Below are positions 1-15,210 of a stretch of 64,000 bases of DNA, piece after piece; position 1 is the first letter of the stretch, and each line of letters begins with the position of its first letter. Both the position numbers and the translations under genes were made by a program. The DNA is from a virus (Duplodnaviria; Caudoviricetes): the IMG/VR virus record IMGVR_UViG_3300027805_000006. The stretch is one strand, 5' to 3'. The notes under the pieces are model-generated. The model was not told the origin of the DNA. It was given only the letters and a program-made list of their open reading frames with translations, and did not search any database.

Positions 1-603
1 ACTGATGCAGTTGCTCTAGGCGAGACAATGACCATCTCTGGTTCTGGTGCAATCACAACAGCCGTTGGAACAGCCAATGATATGACAGTAAGCGTTGCTA
101 CAGCAACAACATCTACACTAGGTGTTGCAAGCTTCAGCAGCGACTTCTTCTCAGTATCAGGTGGTGCAGTCAGCCTAGCCGCAACGCTAGATGACCTAAC
201 CAATGTTTCACTAGCCGATGCTGCTACGACAGATGACATTCTAACCAAGACAGCAAGTGACTGGCAGCCAGTATCACGTGCAGCACTGGTCGGTTCTACA
301 TCAATCGATGCACATAATGATGTCACAATCACATCAGCAACTGGTGGTCAGGCTCTGATTTACAATGGCTCACAGTGGGTAAATCGCAAGATCTATCACA
401 CAGAGACATTTGCTTCAGCATCAACTTGGGTTGTTACACACAGCCTAGGTCAGAAGTTCTGCAACGTCACTGTAGCAGACAGTGCTGATGAAGTTGTAAT
501 TCCACAGTCTATCACTTTCAATAGCACTACACAGCTAACCGTCACCTTCAACACAGCAATCGCTGGTCAGGTAATGGTAACTGGCGTAGCCGCTGGTGCA
601 TAA
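1..603 (+). CDS. tail fibre/collar-like virion protein, 5' partial
   Basis: Frame is open from base 1; Thr/Ala/Ser/Gly-rich, with a C-terminal 'STWVVTHSLG' beta domain shared with downstream genes. Confidence 0.6.
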   Translation, partial: TDAVALGETMTISGSGAITTAVGTANDMTVSVATATTSTLGVASFSSDFFSVSGGAVSLAATLDDLTNVSLADAATTDDILTKTASDWQPVSRAALVGSTSIDAHNDVTITSATGGQALIYNGSQWVNRKIYHTETFASASTWVVTHSLGQKFCNVTVADSADEVVIPQSITFNSTTQLTVTFNTAIAGQVMVTGVAAGA

Positions 604-8172: not shown

Positions 8173-8849
8173 TCAAGTCTATTTATCGCGGTCTGCCAGA
8201 ATAAAGCCGCTCTTTCTTTCAATTCTTGCTTTAATTCTTGATTAAACTCAACTAAAAACTCCATTGGGAAGCCTGTTTCTGCTACCATTAAAATTACACC
8301 GCTGTTTATTTGTGTATCAAACATCTCATTGTGTGCTTCGGCATAGAAGCAAATTTGGAGTTTATAATCGTGAATGTCTGTATTATTTTTAACTCTATTT
8401 GATGTCTTAAAGTCAATAATTGCGGGTCTTCCCTTATACACACCAACAAGGTCACATCGCCCACCGATTTCATATGTTGAGCAGTAAAGGGGAACTTCTT
8501 GACCCCAGACTTCATCAATTTTAGAAAGTTTTAACTTAAGAGAATTGAATGACTGCATATCAGCATATGGCACTGACTTACCGTCAATAGGCTGATTTAC
8601 GTCTTCACCTTTAAGATAGCGCTCTATTAGCAAATGAACATTAGTACCGCGCGTCGTAGCAGCATGACTTACAGCCGCTGCCTTAGCAGCGCCAAGACTT
8701 TCCTGCCACTTCTTCAGTGAAGCCTTCTTTTCTTCAGCCTCAGTCTTTCCTAAAACAGTGGTAATGGAAGGATAATAACCAAAGGGAGTGTCATACCACC
8801 TTTGGTTATTATGAGGAACAGTTGAAAGTTCGGTGTAGTTAAATTTCAC
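8169..8849 (-). CDS. PD-(D/E)XK exonuclease
   Basis: YPSITTVL, RGTNVH, GRCDL..IIDFKTS, LQ..FY. Confidence 0.8.
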   Translation of the reverse strand: MKFNYTELSTVPHNNQRWYDTPFGYYPSITTVLGKTEAEEKKASLKKWQESLGAAKAAAVSHAATTRGTNVHLLIERYLKGEDVNQPIDGKSVPYADMQSFNSLKLKLSKIDEVWGQEVPLYCSTYEIGGRCDLVGVYKGRPAIIDFKTSNRVKNNTDIHDYKLQICFYAEAHNEMFDTQINSGVILMVAETGFPMEFLVEFNQELKQELKERAALFWQTAINRLE

Positions 8850-9517
8850 TTTAGTCGTCTATTCATACGAACGAGACGTCTAGAAGTAGGTTTCCTGCGA
8901 GTGCGTTTAGATTTCAAAATTCTGATAATCTTCTTTTTTCTGGATGCTAATTTGAGTTTCATTCTAGTTCGCGCTTTAGCGCGAGGTTTAAATGCAGCAC
9001 GTGCACTTGACACAACTCTACCTTTTCTAAACCCCGATGTTACTCTAAAACCGCGCTTTATCTTCTTTCCTTGACGTCTAAAAGCACGCTTGATTCCTTC
9101 TTCTAACTCCTCTTCATTGGAAGATTTGATTATATCATCATCTTCATCCTCAGCATCTTCTTCAGAAGGTTGCTCTTCTTCATATGTTTCAATGCCAAGT
9201 TCTTTTAGAGTTTTTTCATCAAGCACTATACCCTGTGGATAAATTTTGTCATTATCTCTAGACAGAACTATACTGTCATCTAAAACTTCTACATACACCG
9301 ACTTGCCAGAATGGTCCTCAATCTCACCACTCTCACCGTCTTCAGCAAGGTCAAACAGATCATTCAGTTGATTAATATCTAACTTTATGATAAATCCTTC
9401 TGCTGATAAGATGACGCCGTGATTTGCTAAGTGCCCAACGTTCCATCCTCCTTTAGGGAGGATAGGCTCATCAGATACCGTCTCCTTAGACGTAAGTTCC
9501 TGTAGAAGTTTCAACAT
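8846..9517 (-). CDS. putative prohead core protein
   Basis: Acidic N-half, LEE|G, then very basic C-tail (KRGFRVTSGFRKGRVV), resembling prohead-core proteins of T4-like phages. Confidence 0.5.
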   Translation of the reverse strand: MLKLLQELTSKETVSDEPILPKGGWNVGHLANHGVILSAEGFIIKLDINQLNDLFDLAEDGESGEIEDHSGKSVYVEVLDDSIVLSRDNDKIYPQGIVLDEKTLKELGIETYEEEQPSEEDAEDEDDDIIKSSNEEELEEGIKRAFRRQGKKIKRGFRVTSGFRKGRVVSSARAAFKPRAKARTRMKLKLASRKKKIIRILKSKRTRRKPTSRRLVRMNRRLK

Positions 9518-9521
9518 TGGA

Positions 9522-10373
9522 TTACAGGGCTCTACCTTGCTTGCTTAGTTTAGCAACCAACGTATTCATTAAACGAAGCATTGATGATTGGCTTCCAATA
9601 GCCTTATCACCCATTTCAATCTGTTTCATCTTCATCTTAACTGTTGATGGAAGCTTTGCAACATCTACACCGAGAGCAGCAAGTAGCTGCTGAGCAGCCA
9701 TTTCAAACTCAGATAGTTTTTGTCCTTGAGCAGGAGCTTCATTCATTTCTTCTTCTTTAACGGTAACTTCAGAGCCAACATTTGCAAGATCTACTCCAAG
9801 TTGGTCAGCCAGCATCATAAACTTAGAGCGAACTACGCCACGTTGAACTAGTGATGCAGTGTCCATTAGTGATGCAGCATCGCGTCTCATTGCACGTGTG
9901 AGGAGACCAGATGGGAAGTTTAGGGCTGCTAAAACTTCCTCAATCTGCCTGACTATTTTTGAACCAATTAGGTCAATTTCCTTATCGCTTGCCATTGGCT
10001 TCTTAGTAATCTTATCAACAACTGGTGCTTCTTCTGCTTCTTTAACCTCTTGACGAGCAAAGCCCTTTGCAGTTGCAAGCGCAGCAAATAAACGTTGCGC
10101 AGCAATGCGTAGAGGTCTGTTGGTTCTCATTTCATCTGCAACTTCAAGAGCAGCGCTTTTTACTGCCTTTGGGCGGCTTTCAAGCGTCTCAAGCGAAATG
10201 CCTAGCAGGTGATATAGTTGGACGATTTGACGTGCCATAGGCATGGTCAAATTTGCAACTGCTGGGCTTGTTGATGGAATGCTTGTGATGTCAAAGTTAT
10301 CCTTAAAGCCATCAACGTCTTTTTCTTTTGCCTCGTTTAGAACGCGGCTTAGGAATTTTTTACCGATAGACAT
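9522..10373 (-). CDS. putative internal head protein
   Basis: Helical; LNE|A and MNE|A motifs; located in the late cluster. Confidence 0.4.
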   Translation of the reverse strand: MSIGKKFLSRVLNEAKEKDVDGFKDNFDITSIPSTSPAVANLTMPMARQIVQLYHLLGISLETLESRPKAVKSAALEVADEMRTNRPLRIAAQRLFAALATAKGFARQEVKEAEEAPVVDKITKKPMASDKEIDLIGSKIVRQIEEVLAALNFPSGLLTRAMRRDAASLMDTASLVQRGVVRSKFMMLADQLGVDLANVGSEVTVKEEEMNEAPAQGQKLSEFEMAAQQLLAALGVDVAKLPSTVKMKMKQIEMGDKAIGSQSSMLRLMNTLVAKLSKQGRAL

Positions 10374-12859
10374 AAAATCTCCTTTAGTGTATGAAAGTTA
10401 TTCTCAGCCGCTTTGTTAGCGAGAATTTGTGTTTCTTCAACAGGGGACTTTCCCGTAAGTCCTCTGCCTAATTTCTTTAGAGCAGACTTTTTCTTTTCTG
10501 CTGGTTTTTCTTCTTCAGACTCTTCTTCAGACTCTTCTTCAGACTCTTCTTCAGACTCTTCTGATTTTTCTTCCTCAGGTTCAGCCTCTTCAGATGGCTC
10601 TTCTTCAGATGGCTCTTCTTCAGATGGCTCTTCTTCAGATGGCTCTTCTTCAGATGGCTCTTCAGGAGGAGGTGGTAGGTCATCCTCAGTCTCTTCGTCT
10701 TCCTCAGAATTATCTACTGAAGCAACTACCTCTACATCATCCTCTGATCCTAAGTCAGCAGCATCATCAATAGAGATTTCATCTTCACCCTTTTCCTGAC
10801 CCTCTGCCCTTGGCCAAATTACATCTAGAATATCAAACTTAGGTGCAAGAGCATTAATCGCATCTTCAATATCATCTTCCATGCCAAGCATCTTCTTCAT
10901 TTCTGTTTCAAATGCTTCAGCCTGTGTGGCATTTACATAAACCTTTACAATTTGCCCATCACTTGTCTCTAACCCATAGAGTACAGCATCGACTTCATCA
11001 TTTAAATCTGAAGCACGCTCTAGGTAATTTGCAACATCTGCTGACTTTACTTTTCCATCGGAGTTGATTGTGTTTCGCATTAAATTAAAGCCAATATCAT
11101 TCTGTGTCTTATTGTTAATATCACCCTCGCCAGCACTAGAACCATCAACTGTTTTTAATTTTGACTGATCAACTTCTTTTAGCAATGGCACATTTAGAGG
11201 TGCAACACTATCAGCTAACTTATACTTCGCAGGATTAAGTTGAACAGCAATATCAGCAATGTGTTTTGGTTTTACACCTTGTGCCATTAGTGCAGTATTC
11301 ACTCTTGTCCATGTCGTATGTTTCTCTTCACCGGGCTTAAGATGCATCATAAATGTAACTGCAGGCTTAACCCCTAGAACAAACTCAACAGCCTTAGAAA
11401 CTTTCTGCACTGGAATCTTTTTAGAATCGATGTCATTGTGTTTAGACTCTTCAATAGGACCAAATTGGCGCTCAACGAATTCTTCTGCTTCTTGTGCAGT
11501 GTAGAATGGACCTTCTATTTCAACACCGTGAGAGTAGTCCTTACGAATCCAAGTCATAACCTGCTCGGGCTCGAGATATCCCATATACGAAGTGCCCCAT
11601 CTATAATCTGGCTTACCTTTGTATGGTCGCTCTCTCCACTTTGTGCTATCTCTTGTTGATACTTCTCCAATCCAGGATGCATTCTCATCTTCATCATAGA
11701 AAGCAACATAGAAGGTATCTATCTCATCTTCATCTTCTTCATCTTCTTCATGCTCAAGGTCTGCTAAACTCAAATCTGAACTATGAAATGAATGTTTGCC
11801 ACCACTGTATAGATTTACTACAACAAACTTTTTGTCTTGACCAAATGAAGCAATTTCACCGGTTTTACCATGTTGCTGTACATTTCCTGTAACTTCAACA
11901 ACATCGCCTATTTCAAAATCTTGCATATCGCCATTCATCTGTGAGGGGCCGCCTTCCGCCACATCTTGCCCCTGAGCAATCATCATCATTTTCTCTTTGT
12001 TGCTGGTGATAACTTCTTTACCGTCTTGTCCTTTAACACGATATATAGGTTGTTCGTTTGGTCCCCAACCATGTATTTGTGCTTGTCCCGGTTTCAAATC
12101 TATAGGCATTTTGGTATAGTTATGAACAACAACATCTCCTACCAAGCCTTCCGCCACATCTTGTTTATAATGATTCTTGAATAGACTATTACATTTTAGG
12201 CAACGATCTTGTTCTGGAGTTTGTGCGAATGTTCTTAAGCCTACACCAGTATCTCTACCTGGATGATCAGCAAGTCCATGTTTTGGTGTTTTTAGATGAA
12301 CTTTGTCTCCAGAGCCTTCCGCCACATCTTGCTGCTTCACTAATCTAAATGCTTCTGCTGGAAGATTATCTGCCTGACCGCCATCCTCTAGATCGATGTA
12401 GAATTTTTTTGGCGCACCCTTGAATAGACCCATCTTTATTTCACGTATCCACCCCGTTTTACCAGCATGCGGCCCTTTGACAATCATAACCAGCTTCTTT
12501 AATGTTTTTGCTTCCGTGACGCCTAATGGTGTCATCCAAACCCTATAGACATCCTCGCGACCAGGCCTACGTACCACTGATTTTTCAATTGACTTTTTCA
12601 CATAAGCTGGATCATTGTATCTTGCTTCCATTGTATCTATTTCATCTTTGCTATACTCGGCTTTTTCAGCAGATTTTCTAAATTCGTCTGAATACTTAAA
12701 GGATTTTCCAGAAGCTTTACTTCCAATTTCACCTTCATGATTTAGTAACTTGAAGCCTTTATTGAATAATTCAGGACTAAATGTATTTTCGGCACGATCA
12801 CCACCATTTGCTGCTTCTGCAACATTATCTACACCAACAATAGTTTTCAGTAAATTCAT
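10349..12859 (-). CDS. putative internal-head polyprotein with QDVAEG linkers and KOW/SH3-like modules
   Basis: 836-aa ORF; three QDVAEG linkers; GPHAGKTG and GDVVEVTG..HGKTG KOW-like motifs; EEPSE/EESE tail. Confidence 0.55.
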   Translation of the reverse strand: MNLLKTIVGVDNVAEAANGGDRAENTFSPELFNKGFKLLNHEGEIGSKASGKSFKYSDEFRKSAEKAEYSKDEIDTMEARYNDPAYVKKSIEKSVVRRPGREDVYRVWMTPLGVTEAKTLKKLVMIVKGPHAGKTGWIREIKMGLFKGAPKKFYIDLEDGGQADNLPAEAFRLVKQQDVAEGSGDKVHLKTPKHGLADHPGRDTGVGLRTFAQTPEQDRCLKCNSLFKNHYKQDVAEGLVGDVVVHNYTKMPIDLKPGQAQIHGWGPNEQPIYRVKGQDGKEVITSNKEKMMMIAQGQDVAEGGPSQMNGDMQDFEIGDVVEVTGNVQQHGKTGEIASFGQDKKFVVVNLYSGGKHSFHSSDLSLADLEHEEDEEDEDEIDTFYVAFYDEDENASWIGEVSTRDSTKWRERPYKGKPDYRWGTSYMGYLEPEQVMTWIRKDYSHGVEIEGPFYTAQEAEEFVERQFGPIEESKHNDIDSKKIPVQKVSKAVEFVLGVKPAVTFMMHLKPGEEKHTTWTRVNTALMAQGVKPKHIADIAVQLNPAKYKLADSVAPLNVPLLKEVDQSKLKTVDGSSAGEGDINNKTQNDIGFNLMRNTINSDGKVKSADVANYLERASDLNDEVDAVLYGLETSDGQIVKVYVNATQAEAFETEMKKMLGMEDDIEDAINALAPKFDILDVIWPRAEGQEKGEDEISIDDAADLGSEDDVEVVASVDNSEEDEETEDDLPPPPEEPSEEEPSEEEPSEEEPSEEEPSEEAEPEEEKSEESEEESEEESEEESEEEKPAEKKKSALKKLGRGLTGKSPVEETQILANKAAENNFHTLKEILCLSVKNS
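10510..10664. repeat. coding tandem repeats (12-bp EESE and 15-bp EEPSE units)
   Basis: TTCTTCAGACTC and CTCTTCTTCAGATGG tandem arrays visible in the sequence. Confidence 0.9.
11951..12331. repeat. three identical 18-bp dispersed repeats GCCTTCCGCCACATCTTG (QDVAEG)
   Basis: Exact copies at 11951-11968, 12146-12163 and 12314-12331. Confidence 0.95.
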
Positions 12860-15174
12860 TTTTTGGCATCCTTGTTTGGATTTTGGAATTTAGGCGCTTG
12901 CCATGTTTTTCTTGCAACACGGCGAATAAGTTTTCCAGTCCCAATACGTGTTTCAATTGGAGCAATAGCAGAGGCAGTTGTTGCAGTTGTTGTCGCACTA
13001 CCAGATGTTGCCACTGCCCCCTCACCTTCTTCAGACAAAGCAATTACACTCTTAAGAAGTTTCATTTCTTGCACCATTTGATAGTTTTCACCACTCGCAT
13101 TAAAAAGAAGTTTATTCATTACTGCTCTTATTCTTGTCAGCAACGGGGTAGTTGGAATAAACTGATTGACGTAGTAATAAAGTTTATTCAAAAACTTTAT
13201 TTTTTCATCAAACGTAAGTTCCTCATACTTAAAAGTGCCATCAAGCAGTATATTTATTCTATCTACATTCATCGCTGGGAAATGCTGTAGAACCTTCAGT
13301 GTCTTTAGGTGGTCATTCCAATCAATTTTGGTATCCTTACCATAACTCAGGTCGATGTGCAGCCAGCGCCACCAATTTGCTGGTACTTTCCTTACATGCC
13401 TGAATAACTCTGCCGAAACCTTCTTCCCAATCAATTTCTTTACTGCTGGAGAACTAACTCTCCAGATTACATAGCCCCAGAAGTTCAGGGCAGACATCTC
13501 CTTTGACCATGAAGAAAGACGACTATGTGTCTTATCTTTCAGCATGCGTATTCCAATTTTATCATCTGCCTTATAGATTACAGATGACATCATTACAGTT
13601 GCAAAGTAGATATTAAGAAGCGTCCAACCGTCCTTATTCTGGTATTGTGCTTTATCTGTGAATAGGCGTGTTTCCTGCAGCATCGCCTCAGCAAGTTGCT
13701 CATCAGTATCTTGATGAACGGCTTTAGCCTGCTTTCCATAAAGAACTGCAGCAAGTTGTCCCTTTGACTTTGCTTTCTTTACTTTTTCTGCAAGTTCTAG
13801 TAGATCTCTACGGCTCTCAGCAAAAACAACAAGAGTTCTTCGGATTATTTCTGGGGAAAGCCCTATCTGTTTTCCTGACTTCAACTTCAACTTAAAGTTG
13901 TCCTTGCTGGTCTTAAAGTCCTTCAGACTTGCTGCTAGTTTGCTGAGCGTCTCTTCAATAAGCGCATTTATCTTCTTCTGAAGTGCTCTAAAATCATCAC
14001 CCCCGCCCAGTTCCTTTGCAAGATTTTTTACTGTTTCTTCTGGTGTGGCTCCCTTGACAGATGATAGAACTCTCTTTGCGCCCTGCGTACGAGCAAGGTC
14101 CTTGTTTCCAAGGAGATCGCCTATCATAATCTTCAATTGTCCAATTAGCCCTCCACGACTTTCGGGTGATGCATCACTGTCAGTGGTCTTTACCATTCCT
14201 GAAATACTGGCTCTTACAGCGTGGTTAAACTGATTAATTGTCGTAAAGGCGTCCTTATCTACAAGTTTGATTTGGTCACCAGTAGTTGGCTCTCTCAGCA
14301 CAACACCTTCAATACCAATATCTTCATCTGGAGATACATCACTTGCAGCAAGAGGTGACTTAATTTGATTTACAAACTTTGTGAGTAGTTCTTTCTTTAT
14401 AGGCAACTTGAATTCTGTCATCAACTTTGCCTGTAACTTTGCACGCAATTCTTTTACTTGTGGTCGAATATCCTTATCAAATGAAGTAACAGCACGAGAG
14501 ATAATATCAAAGTTTGTTGCACCTTCGATATCAGAAGCATCATTTAAAAAATTATCTAACTGCTTCAGTTCTTTTGAAAGATTAACTTCTTTCAACTTGC
14601 TGCTGTCAATCTTCTGTACGCCAACAAATTGAAATGATAAATCTGCTGGCTGTACTACCAAATTTTCACCATCTGCAGTATCGACAACCTTTACATGCAC
14701 ATTCACAACCTGATTTGCCAGTGCAGCAGAAAGTTTATCTACCACCACATCAGAGGTCTTACCAATACCGCGGATAAAAGCAATGTAGTTTTTTCCACCA
14801 GCGCCATAAGTAACGGCATTAGGTTGGCGCCCAAACAAAATTTCTATCTCTACAGCATCACCTGGTTCTAAGATGCTCTTAATGTCGGCTTCTTTTTCAG
14901 CCAATGCAGCATGCGCTGACCTAAACCCATTGTTGGCAGAAAGGTAGGGGTATGAAGCCTCTGAATACACGTTCTCAGCACTTTTTGTTTTGCCAGCGCG
15001 TGAGGTATACAGGCGTCCCTTGCCATCAAGTCCAAACTGCAAATTTGCTCCATCAAGTTTTTCGGACGCAATGAAATTTGCAATATTCTTGACCGCAGCG
15101 ATAAAAGCCTGGATGTCCAGATCTTCTAAATGTGTAATTGCCTCAGAAATAACCATATAACTAGCAGATTTCAT
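12856..15174 (-). CDS. ATP-dependent ligase-fold (RNA ligase-like) nucleotidyltransferase, late
   Basis: Motif I SEKLDG, motif IV EGVVLR, motif V IKLV; CATAAATA directly upstream. Confidence 0.6.
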   Translation of the reverse strand: MKSASYMVISEAITHLEDLDIQAFIAAVKNIANFIASEKLDGANLQFGLDGKGRLYTSRAGKTKSAENVYSEASYPYLSANNGFRSAHAALAEKEADIKSILEPGDAVEIEILFGRQPNAVTYGAGGKNYIAFIRGIGKTSDVVVDKLSAALANQVVNVHVKVVDTADGENLVVQPADLSFQFVGVQKIDSSKLKEVNLSKELKQLDNFLNDASDIEGATNFDIISRAVTSFDKDIRPQVKELRAKLQAKLMTEFKLPIKKELLTKFVNQIKSPLAASDVSPDEDIGIEGVVLREPTTGDQIKLVDKDAFTTINQFNHAVRASISGMVKTTDSDASPESRGGLIGQLKIMIGDLLGNKDLARTQGAKRVLSSVKGATPEETVKNLAKELGGGDDFRALQKKINALIEETLSKLAASLKDFKTSKDNFKLKLKSGKQIGLSPEIIRRTLVVFAESRRDLLELAEKVKKAKSKGQLAAVLYGKQAKAVHQDTDEQLAEAMLQETRLFTDKAQYQNKDGWTLLNIYFATVMMSSVIYKADDKIGIRMLKDKTHSRLSSWSKEMSALNFWGYVIWRVSSPAVKKLIGKKVSAELFRHVRKVPANWWRWLHIDLSYGKDTKIDWNDHLKTLKVLQHFPAMNVDRINILLDGTFKYEELTFDEKIKFLNKLYYYVNQFIPTTPLLTRIRAVMNKLLFNASGENYQMVQEMKLLKSVIALSEEGEGAVATSGSATTTATTASAIAPIETRIGTGKLIRRVARKTWQAPKFQNPNKDAKK

Positions 15175-15178
15175 TTAA

Positions 15179-15210
15179 TATTTATGACAAAGGGGGCAAA
15201 TTTGCCCCCT
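15179..15210 (-). promoter_or_regulatory. GC hairpin (probable terminator) followed by late promoter CATAAATA
   Basis: AGGGGGCAAATTTGCCCCCT at 15191-15210, then CATAAATA (RC 15179-15186), then ATG at 15174. Confidence 0.7.

Follow-up and report, generated by a model that had tools for sequence, protein, structure and literature searches.

Organization of the locus

The window, i.e. the whole 64-kb stretch of viral DNA that was analysed, carries on its minus strand a modular ORF of 836 amino acids, the features of which are listed in Table 1. The start of this ORF overlaps the stop codon of an upstream 772-aa ORF (ATGA), and a match to the T4 late box at seven of eight positions, CATAAATA (15179-15186, minus strand; a sequence match only), follows a terminator hairpin and lies just before that upstream ORF. 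The neighbouring genes are replication genes (a helicase and a ligase-like ORF), and no head genes were found among the ORFs of the window.

Table 1. Features of the 836-aa ORF (↓, predicted cut position)
Feature	Position	Strand	Remarks
Modular 'beads on a string' ORF, 836 aa	10349..12859	minus	Carries all three linkers
N-terminal leader, 15 residues	12815..12859	minus	Ends N-V-A-E↓A; T4 capsid-targeting-like; ordinary codons
Degenerate linker L-G-V-T-E-A	12509..12526	minus	Precedes the KOW module; peptide motif kept, DNA non-canonical
KOW-like module, residues 118-176	12332..12508	minus	Weak Pfam and PDB-profile matches
Linker copy 1, QDVAEG	12314..12331	minus	Exact 18-mer
Module M1, 50 aa	12164..12313	minus	His/Cys-rich
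Linker copy 2, QDVAEG	12146..12163	minus	Exact 18-mer
Module M2, 59 aa	11969..12145	minus	
Linker copy 3, QDVAEG	11951..11968	minus	Exact 18-mer
Conserved family core, residues 304-473	11441..11950	minus	Ends I-E-E↓S
C-terminal part, residues 474-836	10349..11440	minus	More shuffled segments and acidic Ser/Glu/Pro repeat tail

Modules and their distribution

The preliminary description had proposed that unrelated modules of 50-60 aa are separated by the linkers, with KOW/SH3-like modules on either side, and both proposals are supported. M1 and M2 share no similarity (BLASTP E = 2.3). The matches of the module before the first linker are weak, but every one of them is to a KOW domain (Pfam E = 0.0077; profile against PDB sequences), and the domain after the third linker was modelled as a KOW/SH3-like barrel (pLDDT 79), which aligns with the KOW domains of Spt5 and NusG with an rmsd of 1.2-2.2 Å. 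In the family core this barrel is accompanied by an acidic loop and by an alpha/beta domain without assigned function, and the repeats of the long Ser/Glu/Pro tail lie at about 10496-10705. In the PDB sequence profile search M2 gave no match and residues 304-473 gave noise only, while the Atlas structure search returned nothing above 0.77. The AlphaFold model made from the single sequence of residues 101-375 was of no use (pLDDT 32), and a combined alignment of all modules was discarded since it stacked them on one another. No Pfam family reached the cut-off in the 836-aa ORF, and in eight homologues only DUF6321 and one cytidylyltransferase-like domain were seen. Tail-fibre similarity was absent from the ORF; its modules are KOW/SH3-like barrels and domains without assigned function.

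The fifty-three homologues (471-1306 aa) each match single modules of the query only. The KOW module occurs in eighteen other proteins at varied positions, always between linkers, and M1 is found elsewhere between QGVAEG-type linkers and, in other metagenomes, without an adjoining M2. All KOW, M1, and M2 copies are flanked by linkers of the Q-G-V-[AS]-E-[GA] type, and at the position of the degenerate linker relatives carry (Q)GV[SA]EA. Among cultured phages, a megablast search with the locus gave no match and tblastn gave a single one, of 76 residues, in Ralstonia phage RsoM2USA. A search of IMG/VR with the whole 836-aa protein found no relative, and a search for contigs encoding P0001 found none; the DNA of relatives was retrieved through alignment of M2 rather than by a whole-protein query. 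None of the public runs contained the whole 1.4-kb stretch, the best sharing 5-8% of it, and no joints were reported for the reads placed on it.

The linker and its spread

As the preliminary description had reported, the 18-bp sequence CAAGATGTGGCGGAAGGC is present in three exact copies, and the positions and frame were confirmed. Translated in frame, each gives QDVAEG; the three lie at residues 177, 233, and 298. No further copies occur in the 64-kb window, even at three mismatches, and three matches were reached in none of 100 shuffled controls. Based on the codon usage of the window, the chance that three independent QDVAEG peptides share all six codons is about 4e-5. A tandem duplication giving rise to the repeats was rejected, since the modules between the linkers are unrelated. 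Three further ideas, namely a translational bypass from one identical linker to another, initiation of translation inside the ORF at the linker, and the 5' end of a group II intron (GTGTG lies inside the linker), were considered as well and were dropped for want of a supporting feature. In the phage literature nothing was found for QDVAEG, QGVAEG, or shorter forms.

CAAGATGTGGCGGAAGGC is a one-base variant (GGT to GAT, Gly to Asp) of a consensus linker, CAAGGTGTGGCGGAAGGC, encoding QGVAEG. The consensus is present in at least 120 IMG/VR stretches and at least 144 distinct protein contexts, although several of the linker counts come from loci chosen for bearing the linker. Among the copies listed, 147 of 151 lie in an open frame, and the spacings are always multiples of three. 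The Asp variant was found in 39 stretches. The variant counts of two partly degenerate scans are samples among the matches listed, not totals. In cellular genomes there were only chance-level matches in GC-rich DNA, together with one phage-like MAG contig. Five records with an estimated completeness of 76-100% carry two to six linker copies each.

Conservation of the linker at the nucleotide level

Codon usage was compared between the linkers and the rest of the same genes at loci found by protein homology to the modules only. Valine is encoded by GTG in 20/22 linkers (12% in the same genes) and alanine by GCG in 21/24 (7%), and the glycine codons are GGC in 20/23 (25%) and GGT in 20/20 (45%). 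GTG and GCG make up approximately 90% of the linker Val and Ala codons, and the same bias was observed in 37 secondary linkers at other loci. Where residues are identical, the codon is also identical at 126/136 positions in linkers (93%) versus 404/656 inside M2 (62%). The preference reaches the preceding codon, which reads NAG, and linkers remain near-identical beside M2 copies with a DNA difference of 16-22%. The linker codons, the identity of which had been stressed in the preliminary description, hence do not vary freely: rare codons are used, and synonymous sites are kept about five times better than in the adjoining module. These comparisons show that the linker is conserved as DNA well beyond the requirement of the peptide.

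It could be argued that what counts is the peptide alone, whether as a flexible hinge or as a site for a protease, and that the identity of the DNA is passive, being carried along by recent cassettes, with breakpoints at linkers only because recombinants with a broken domain are lost. Some observations agree with this. The M2 cassette shared with another locus, L248, is very recent (99% identity); therefore, some linker identity is by descent. Within the linker, variation is lowest at the T of Val and the GA of Glu, Glu and Val being the most constrained positions, and at the DNVAEA and LGVTEA sites of the 836-aa ORF the peptide motif is retained and its codons are ordinary. However, passive carriage should not leave linker codons at 93% identity beside M2 copies that have diverged by 16-22%, the rare codons should erode under mutation and codon bias, and the preference takes in the preceding codon's third base as well. 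With two to six copies per genome, homogenisation among many copies within a genome cannot explain the conservation either. Overall, such a passive origin appears improbable.

About the same modest weight may be given to another nucleotide-level function of the 18-mer, such as an endonuclease or recombinase site, RNA processing, or a translational pause at domain boundaries. The codons are specific and not merely rare, with GGT at one Gly and GGC at the other, and the preference covers two preceding bases. Free-standing homing endonucleases are numerous in T4-like phages, which also counts in its favour. On the other hand, the motif is found in one reading frame of coding DNA only, dyad symmetry is absent from it, Rfam gave no match, and no associated enzyme was identified, no recombinase being seen among the window ORFs scanned. 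Every copy is a direct repeat on the same strand, and the flanks are unrelated; therefore, a conserved RNA structure is impossible.

Exchange of modules at the linker

The segment 11951-12163 (linker-M2-linker) is identical to L248 at 211 of 213 bases, and the block of identity runs from the first base of one linker to the last base of the next. The backbones of L248 and the window are 67-69% identical, and the immediate neighbours of the cassette are unrelated. Contigs from four studies share M1 or M2 only, at 90% identity or more, and diverge at 11951/11955, 12145, 12152-12165, and 12326-12333, which correspond to the three linkers. Between loci, 72 of the 306 internal ends of blocks with at least 90% identity fall at a linker, compared with 1.7 expected (about 40-fold). 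Linkers form the borders of two clean indels (L322 versus L353, and L365 versus L247). The set of modules is thus not fixed in relatives, in agreement with what the preliminary description had anticipated, and gains, losses, and exchanges occur exactly at the linker. As judged from these comparisons, the linker is a junction for the exchange, insertion, and deletion of modules between phage genomes. The preliminary description went further and regarded it as a recombination handle. The breakpoints at linkers and the synonymous conservation agree with that part of the proposal, and it is because of these two features that the 18-base homology itself may be thought to guide the crossovers.

The repeats and the mosaicism could in principle arise from chimeric metagenome assembly, since all of the data are metagenomic and, with an identical cassette of 213 bases, an assembler could jump from one co-occurring phage to another. 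The 18-base repeat, however, is shorter than the usual assembly k-mers and therefore cannot cause such a switch. Moreover, hundreds of contigs, drawn from many samples and built by several assemblers, carry the same linkers and cassettes, the frames are open, and the spacings keep to multiples of three. An artefact is extremely improbable.

Counting against guidance of the crossovers by homology, selection for intact domains alone would also leave surviving breakpoints between modules.

Predicted proteolysis and capsid targeting

In T4, gp21 cuts after L/I-X-E (PMC9026906), and cargo proteins carry a 10-residue capsid-targeting leader (PMC9026906, PMC5694885). The V-A-E↓G peptide conforms to the hydrophobic-x-Glu rule of the T4 head protease and is a predicted cut site, with Val or Met at P3 compared with Leu or Ile in T4. 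The leader of the 836-aa ORF is likewise a motif-level match only, with Val instead of Leu/Ile at P3. The motif [VILM]-x-E-[AGS] lies within the first 24 residues of 23/53 homologues and of 7/40 long ORFs of the window, three of the latter belonging to the gene cluster of the 836-aa ORF. Among five IMG/VR records that contain the 18-mer, exact or as a near variant, three encode a Peptidase_S77 above the cut-off, adjoining a Gp23 capsid gene, and the N-terminus of Gp23 in these three carries L-L-E↓S/G. The linker is considered a putative protease site because of the V-x-E↓G motif, the T4-like leader, and the S77 genes in the three related records. Cleavage at VAE↓G and packaging into the head may then follow.

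Alternatively, the linkers may never be cut, and the product may be one multidomain chain, for example of KOW/SH3-like binding modules, perhaps acting outside the capsid. The position of the gene beside replication genes and not head genes is in favour of this possibility. In addition, some linkers lie only one or two residues before the stop codon (the L012 family, L306, and L348), and a cut at the very C-terminus would therefore be purposeless. Against it, the pattern of constraint within the linker matches hydrophobic-x-Glu, a leader resembling the T4 targeting sequence is present here and in many homologues, the homologous gene comes after the large terminase gene in L259 and L262, and S77 protease genes are found in related records. 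An uncut chain is unlikely, although its probability is appreciable.

Proposed mechanism and significance

On balance, the 836-aa ORF is best read as coding for a bead-string polyprotein, its source being a jumbo phage from freshwater that is related to T4; linkers of the QGVAEG type would act in it as a homology patch and as a predicted prohead-protease site. This favoured scheme can be described as follows. Small, independently folding modules would be joined by Q-G-V-A-E-G linkers encoded by CAAGGTGTGGCGGAAGGC, and the 18-22 identical bases would provide a short patch of homology for recombination between co-infecting phages. A crossover at the linker would automatically be in frame and between domains. 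Cassettes with intact linkers would keep spreading while those with mutated linkers would become stuck, which would explain the conserved synonymous sites. The N-terminal leader may load the chain into the prohead, where V-A-E↓G may be the cut site for a T4-type S77, gp21-like prohead protease, and the modules would be released inside the capsid as separate small proteins.

Eighteen bases are short for efficient homologous recombination. A different scheme would make the linker (18-22 bases) the site of a dedicated trans-acting endonuclease or recombinase, cutting at linkers and driving the copying of neighbouring modules between co-infecting genomes. In-frame domain cassettes would then behave like those of integrons, with a translated site that doubles as a protease site. 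This scheme is regarded as quite doubtful.

The sequences directly show domain shuffling at one defined, DNA-conserved junction, and this in a large group of freshwater jumbo phages that are uncultured. Should that junction be a head-protease site as well, as in the polyprotein scheme, one short element would both add cargo in frame and release it as separate proteins inside the capsid. Cutting proteins at the linker may serve as a handle for finding phage cargo or effector modules without assigned function. The linker also offers a measure of natural rates of module exchange and a route to engineering T4-type phages with swappable cargo. An evolutionary question is posed as well, namely what fixes the synonymous sites of an 18-base coding element at two to six copies per genome.

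Comparison with known systems

Polyvalent proteins (PMC5512222) likewise carry many unrelated domains on one delivered polypeptide, which is thought to be cut into units. A peptidase domain is embedded in them, and a conserved linker has not been described for them (PMC5512222), whereas the 836-aa ORF has no peptidase or other Pfam domain and instead has a fixed linker and a putative trans-acting protease. The MPTase-type peptidase and conflict-related enzyme domains by which polyvalent proteins are recognised (Iyer et al. 2017) are absent from it. Integron attC and shufflon sfx sites are served by a dedicated recombinase and are symmetric or inverted; the 18-mer is without dyad symmetry and its copies are direct repeats, and among the ORFs scanned no recombinase was seen.

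The promoter-terminator cassettes known as PeSLs (PMC2839356, PMC4122927) are similar in that recombination in T4-type phages takes place at short conserved DNA where modules meet. PeSLs, however, are intergenic and regulatory and shuffle whole genes, while the QGVAEG linker is translated and shuffles protein domains. The glycine-rich motifs of T-even gp38 (PMC3157838) are conserved coding motifs that flank variable segments, mark mosaic breakpoints, and permit in-frame swaps; the two marks of such mosaicism, a conserved motif and coinciding breakpoints, are both present here. In gp38 they concern one adhesin and its host range, while here an 18-base inter-domain linker is used in at least 144 protein contexts and also resembles a protease site.

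T4 IPI-III and Alt (PMC9026906, PMC5694885) share with the 836-aa ORF a short leader ending in hydrophobic-x-Glu, the motif that in T4 is cut C-terminal to Glu, a setting of T4-related phages, and variable cargo genes; an S77 protease, as in T4, is encoded in three related records. In T4 one cargo protein stands behind one leader, whereas several unrelated modules are strung together here with the motif at every joint. The cut site is predicted from sequence here, and the joint is conserved as DNA across phages.

Linkers and modules of the polyprotein

Exactly three copies of the 18-mer CAAGATGTGGCGGAAGGC are present in the whole window, all on the minus strand; no further copy was found elsewhere in the window when up to three mismatches were permitted, and no shuffled sequence reached three matches. 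All three copies encode QDVAEG in frame in the 836-aa ORF at 10349-12859 (minus strand), and the two modules that they enclose, M1 (50 aa) and M2 (59 aa), are not related to each other. Based on the window's own codon usage, in which GTG (16%), GCG (15%), and GGC (21%) are minority codons, the probability that three independent QDVAEG peptides have all codons identical is approximately 4e-5. The preliminary description, in which nucleotide-identical linkers separate unrelated modules, is borne out.

Linkers (CAAGATGTGGCGGAAGGC) and modules of the 836-aa ORF, from the N-terminus
Feature	Residues	Window position	Strand	Basis
KOW-like module	119-176		minus	local alignment border
Linker, QDVAEG	from 177	12314-12331	minus	exact 18-mer match
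M1	183-232		minus	local alignment border
Linker, QDVAEG	from 233	12146-12163	minus	exact 18-mer match
M2	239-297		minus	local alignment border
Linker, QDVAEG	from 298	11951-11968	minus	exact 18-mer match
Conserved core	304-473		minus	local alignment border

No Pfam or PHROG family reached the cut-off for the ORF, and no close relative of the polyprotein or its locus was found among cultured phages. A protein search returned 53 homologues of 471-1306 aa, encoded on contigs as long as 368 kb; each aligns to only part of the query, with local alignments that start and stop at module borders. Each module reappears in other proteins at very different positions, flanked in every case by Q-G-V-[A/S]-E-[G/A]-type peptides. 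Therefore, the consensus linker is QGVAEG, of which the window has a Gly-to-Asp variant (GGT to GAT). This variant is found in all three window linkers but in one copy apiece in 39 of 39 IMG/VR stretches with CAAGATGTGGCGGAAGGC (L001-L039), whose other linkers have the GGT form, which suggests that neighbouring linkers in the window were copied locally from one another.

The first KOW-like module gave weak matches, all to KOW proteins. In the model of the core (pLDDT 79), a KOW/SH3-like barrel is combined with an acidic loop and an alpha/beta domain, and the predicted barrel superposes on the KOW domains of Spt5 and NusG at 1.2-2.2 A. In the C-terminal tail of the polyprotein (10496-10705, minus strand), long 12- and 15-base repeats encode Ser/Glu/Pro-rich acidic peptides. 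The shuffled modules also include recurrent small Cys-containing ones (D-E-K-C-W ... V-P-N-C motif), as well as a DUF6321 domain at the C-terminus (loci L247, L365, and L038; protein P0024, residues 717-793).

Module exchange at the linker

The contig L248, which carries the closest homologue, matches window 11951-12163 at 211 of 213 bases over the block linker-M2-linker, which marks a recent transfer; the identity runs from the first base of one linker to the last base of the next. Elsewhere in L248, identity in the homologous backbone is 67-69%, and the sequence adjoining the block is unrelated; the KOW module and M1 are absent, other modules follow M2, and the left and right M2 linkers have GAT and GGT, respectively. 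Contigs from four public runs of four studies (freshwater, aquaculture, and aquatic) carry M1 only or M2 only at 90% identity or more, and pass into unrelated sequence at 11951/11955, 12145, 12152-12165, and 12326-12333, that is, at the three linkers. An assembly artefact is a very unlikely source of the repeats or the mosaic structure. When 372 loci were compared all-against-all, blocks with at least 90% identity had 306 internal ends, of which 72 were no more than 6 bases from a linker (1.7 expected). Clean indels were also found: where L353 has one linker, L322 has KGVAEG and QGVAEG with a 301-base cassette between them, and at a linker of L247 the loci L365 and L290 are longer by 1109 bases (two cassettes). 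The tests that the preliminary description had set for its proposed recombination handle, linker-bounded indels in relatives and a search for the 18-mer, are thus positive on the DNA side.

Among the 39 IMG/VR stretches with CAAGATGTGGCGGAAGGC, whose flanks form about 25 unrelated groups, 33 have it in open frames as QDVAEG, and in four more it lies in the same frame at the extreme end of an ORF, with one residue between it and the stop codon. The consensus CAAGGTGTGGCGGAAGGC is present in at least 120 IMG/VR stretches. In the new loci among the matches listed, 147 of 151 copies lie in open frames, in 144 distinct contexts; the spacing of copies within one locus, among the matches listed, is always a multiple of three (150-1308 bases). 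In some loci (L012, L020, L022, L029, L306, and L348), an ORF stops one or two residues past a canonical linker (e.g. linker, Thr, stop), which resembles a scar left by a lost cassette or a docking point for one not yet added.

Across 596 Gb of cellular genomes, the 18-mer is no more frequent than chance predicts and its hits are limited to GC-rich DNA, with the exception of L426, a 39%-GC phage-like MAG contig of 8950 bases with three canonical linkers in frame. It was binned as uncultured Bacteroidetes, and is probably a phage fragment placed in a bacterial MAG.

Conservation of the linker at the DNA level

The key control consists of 24 linkers in seven loci that were retrieved by module protein homology only and were not nucleotide-selected. 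Their codons were GTG for Val in 20/22 (12% in the same genes), GCG for Ala in 21/24 (7%), GGC for the last Gly in 20/23 (25%), and GGT for the first Gly in 20/20 (45%), and 37 secondary linkers of other loci showed the same pattern. Among six M2 cassettes differing by 16-22% in DNA, codons at identical residues agree in 126/136 cases in linkers versus 404/656 in the M2 interior, or 94% versus 55% for Gly, Val, and Ala only. An explanation by passive DNA identity together with selection for intact domains is weakened by this contrast between the synonymous sites of linkers and modules, and by the rare codons of the linkers.

In loci L263-L380, the codon ahead of the linker is mostly NAG, with G as third base in 93 of 139, although A-ending codons dominate their genes, and T immediately follows the linker in 75 of 139. 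Together these preferences put the length of the conserved DNA unit at about 21 bases rather than 18. Five jumbo-phage records (262-374 kb, estimated completeness 76-100%) have only 2-6 linker copies per record, in one to three places, which rules out homogenisation among many copies in one genome.

The most likely reading is that the linker is a dual-use junction, a DNA patch for in-frame exchange and a predicted head-protease site. The 18-22 conserved bases would provide an identity patch for co-infecting phages, and any crossover within it would fall between domains and keep the frame; the head protease would then cut the encoded V-A-E↓G, freeing each module in the capsid. Under this dual-use reading, the synonymous conservation would arise because a cassette can go on spreading to new contexts only if its linkers are intact. 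Alternatively, the 18-mer may act at the nucleotide level in some other way, for example as a site for an endonuclease or recombinase.

Predicted processing and genomic setting

Among 591 distinct in-frame linker-like sites, a sample partly biased by locus retrieval, variation is lowest at the first two bases of the Glu codon and at the second base of the Val codon, and the variable positions are Q/E/K, G/D, and the final G/A. As read from sequence, the constraint follows hydrophobic-x-Glu, as does the T4 prohead protease gp21, whose rule is L/I-X-E with cutting after Glu (PMC9026906; PMC5694885). The polyprotein begins with a 15-residue leader ending in N-V-A-E↓A, and many homologues start with M-K/N-L-x-x-x-L-L-x-I/L-x-E-type leaders, which resemble the T4 capsid-targeting sequence. 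Peptidase_S77 lies beside a Gp23-type capsid gene in three of five IMG/VR records with the exact 18-mer or a near variant; the capsid protein N-terminus has L-L-E↓S and L-L-E↓G in these records, and the adjoining scaffold-like protein is full of L-L-E-type motifs. In two relatives, L259 and L262, the polyprotein gene is directly downstream of the large terminase gene. Cleavage, packaging, and timing of the polyprotein are what we infer; the multidomain protein may also stay uncut.

The upstream 772-aa ORF (12856-15174, minus strand) overlaps the polyprotein start (ATGA), has a weak RNA-ligase Pfam match below the cut-off (E = 0.003), and has a leader ending in I-S-E↓A; similar leaders are present on the next two ORFs that follow the polyprotein (9522-10373 and 8846-9517). 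Within 15179-15209, a terminator-like GC-rich hairpin (15192-15209, minus strand) is followed directly by CATAAATA, a 7/8 match to the T4 late box. Only 4 bases lie between the end of this match and the start codon (ATG) of the 772-aa ORF, so that almost no leader would remain.

Comparison with known systems

In its predicted protein logic, the polyprotein matches the T4 internal proteins and Alt. At the DNA level, the logic of the linker is similar to that of the gp38 adhesins, which recombine at conserved motifs (PMC3157838), and of the PeSL cassettes with their recombination points (PMC2839356, PMC4122927). Polyvalent proteins (PMC5512222), unlike the linker-joined polyprotein, carry their own peptidase and have no linker described. 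None of the papers searched mentions this linker. The novelty lies in one translated linker being conserved as DNA population-wide, and in the direct evidence that cassettes have been transferred at it.
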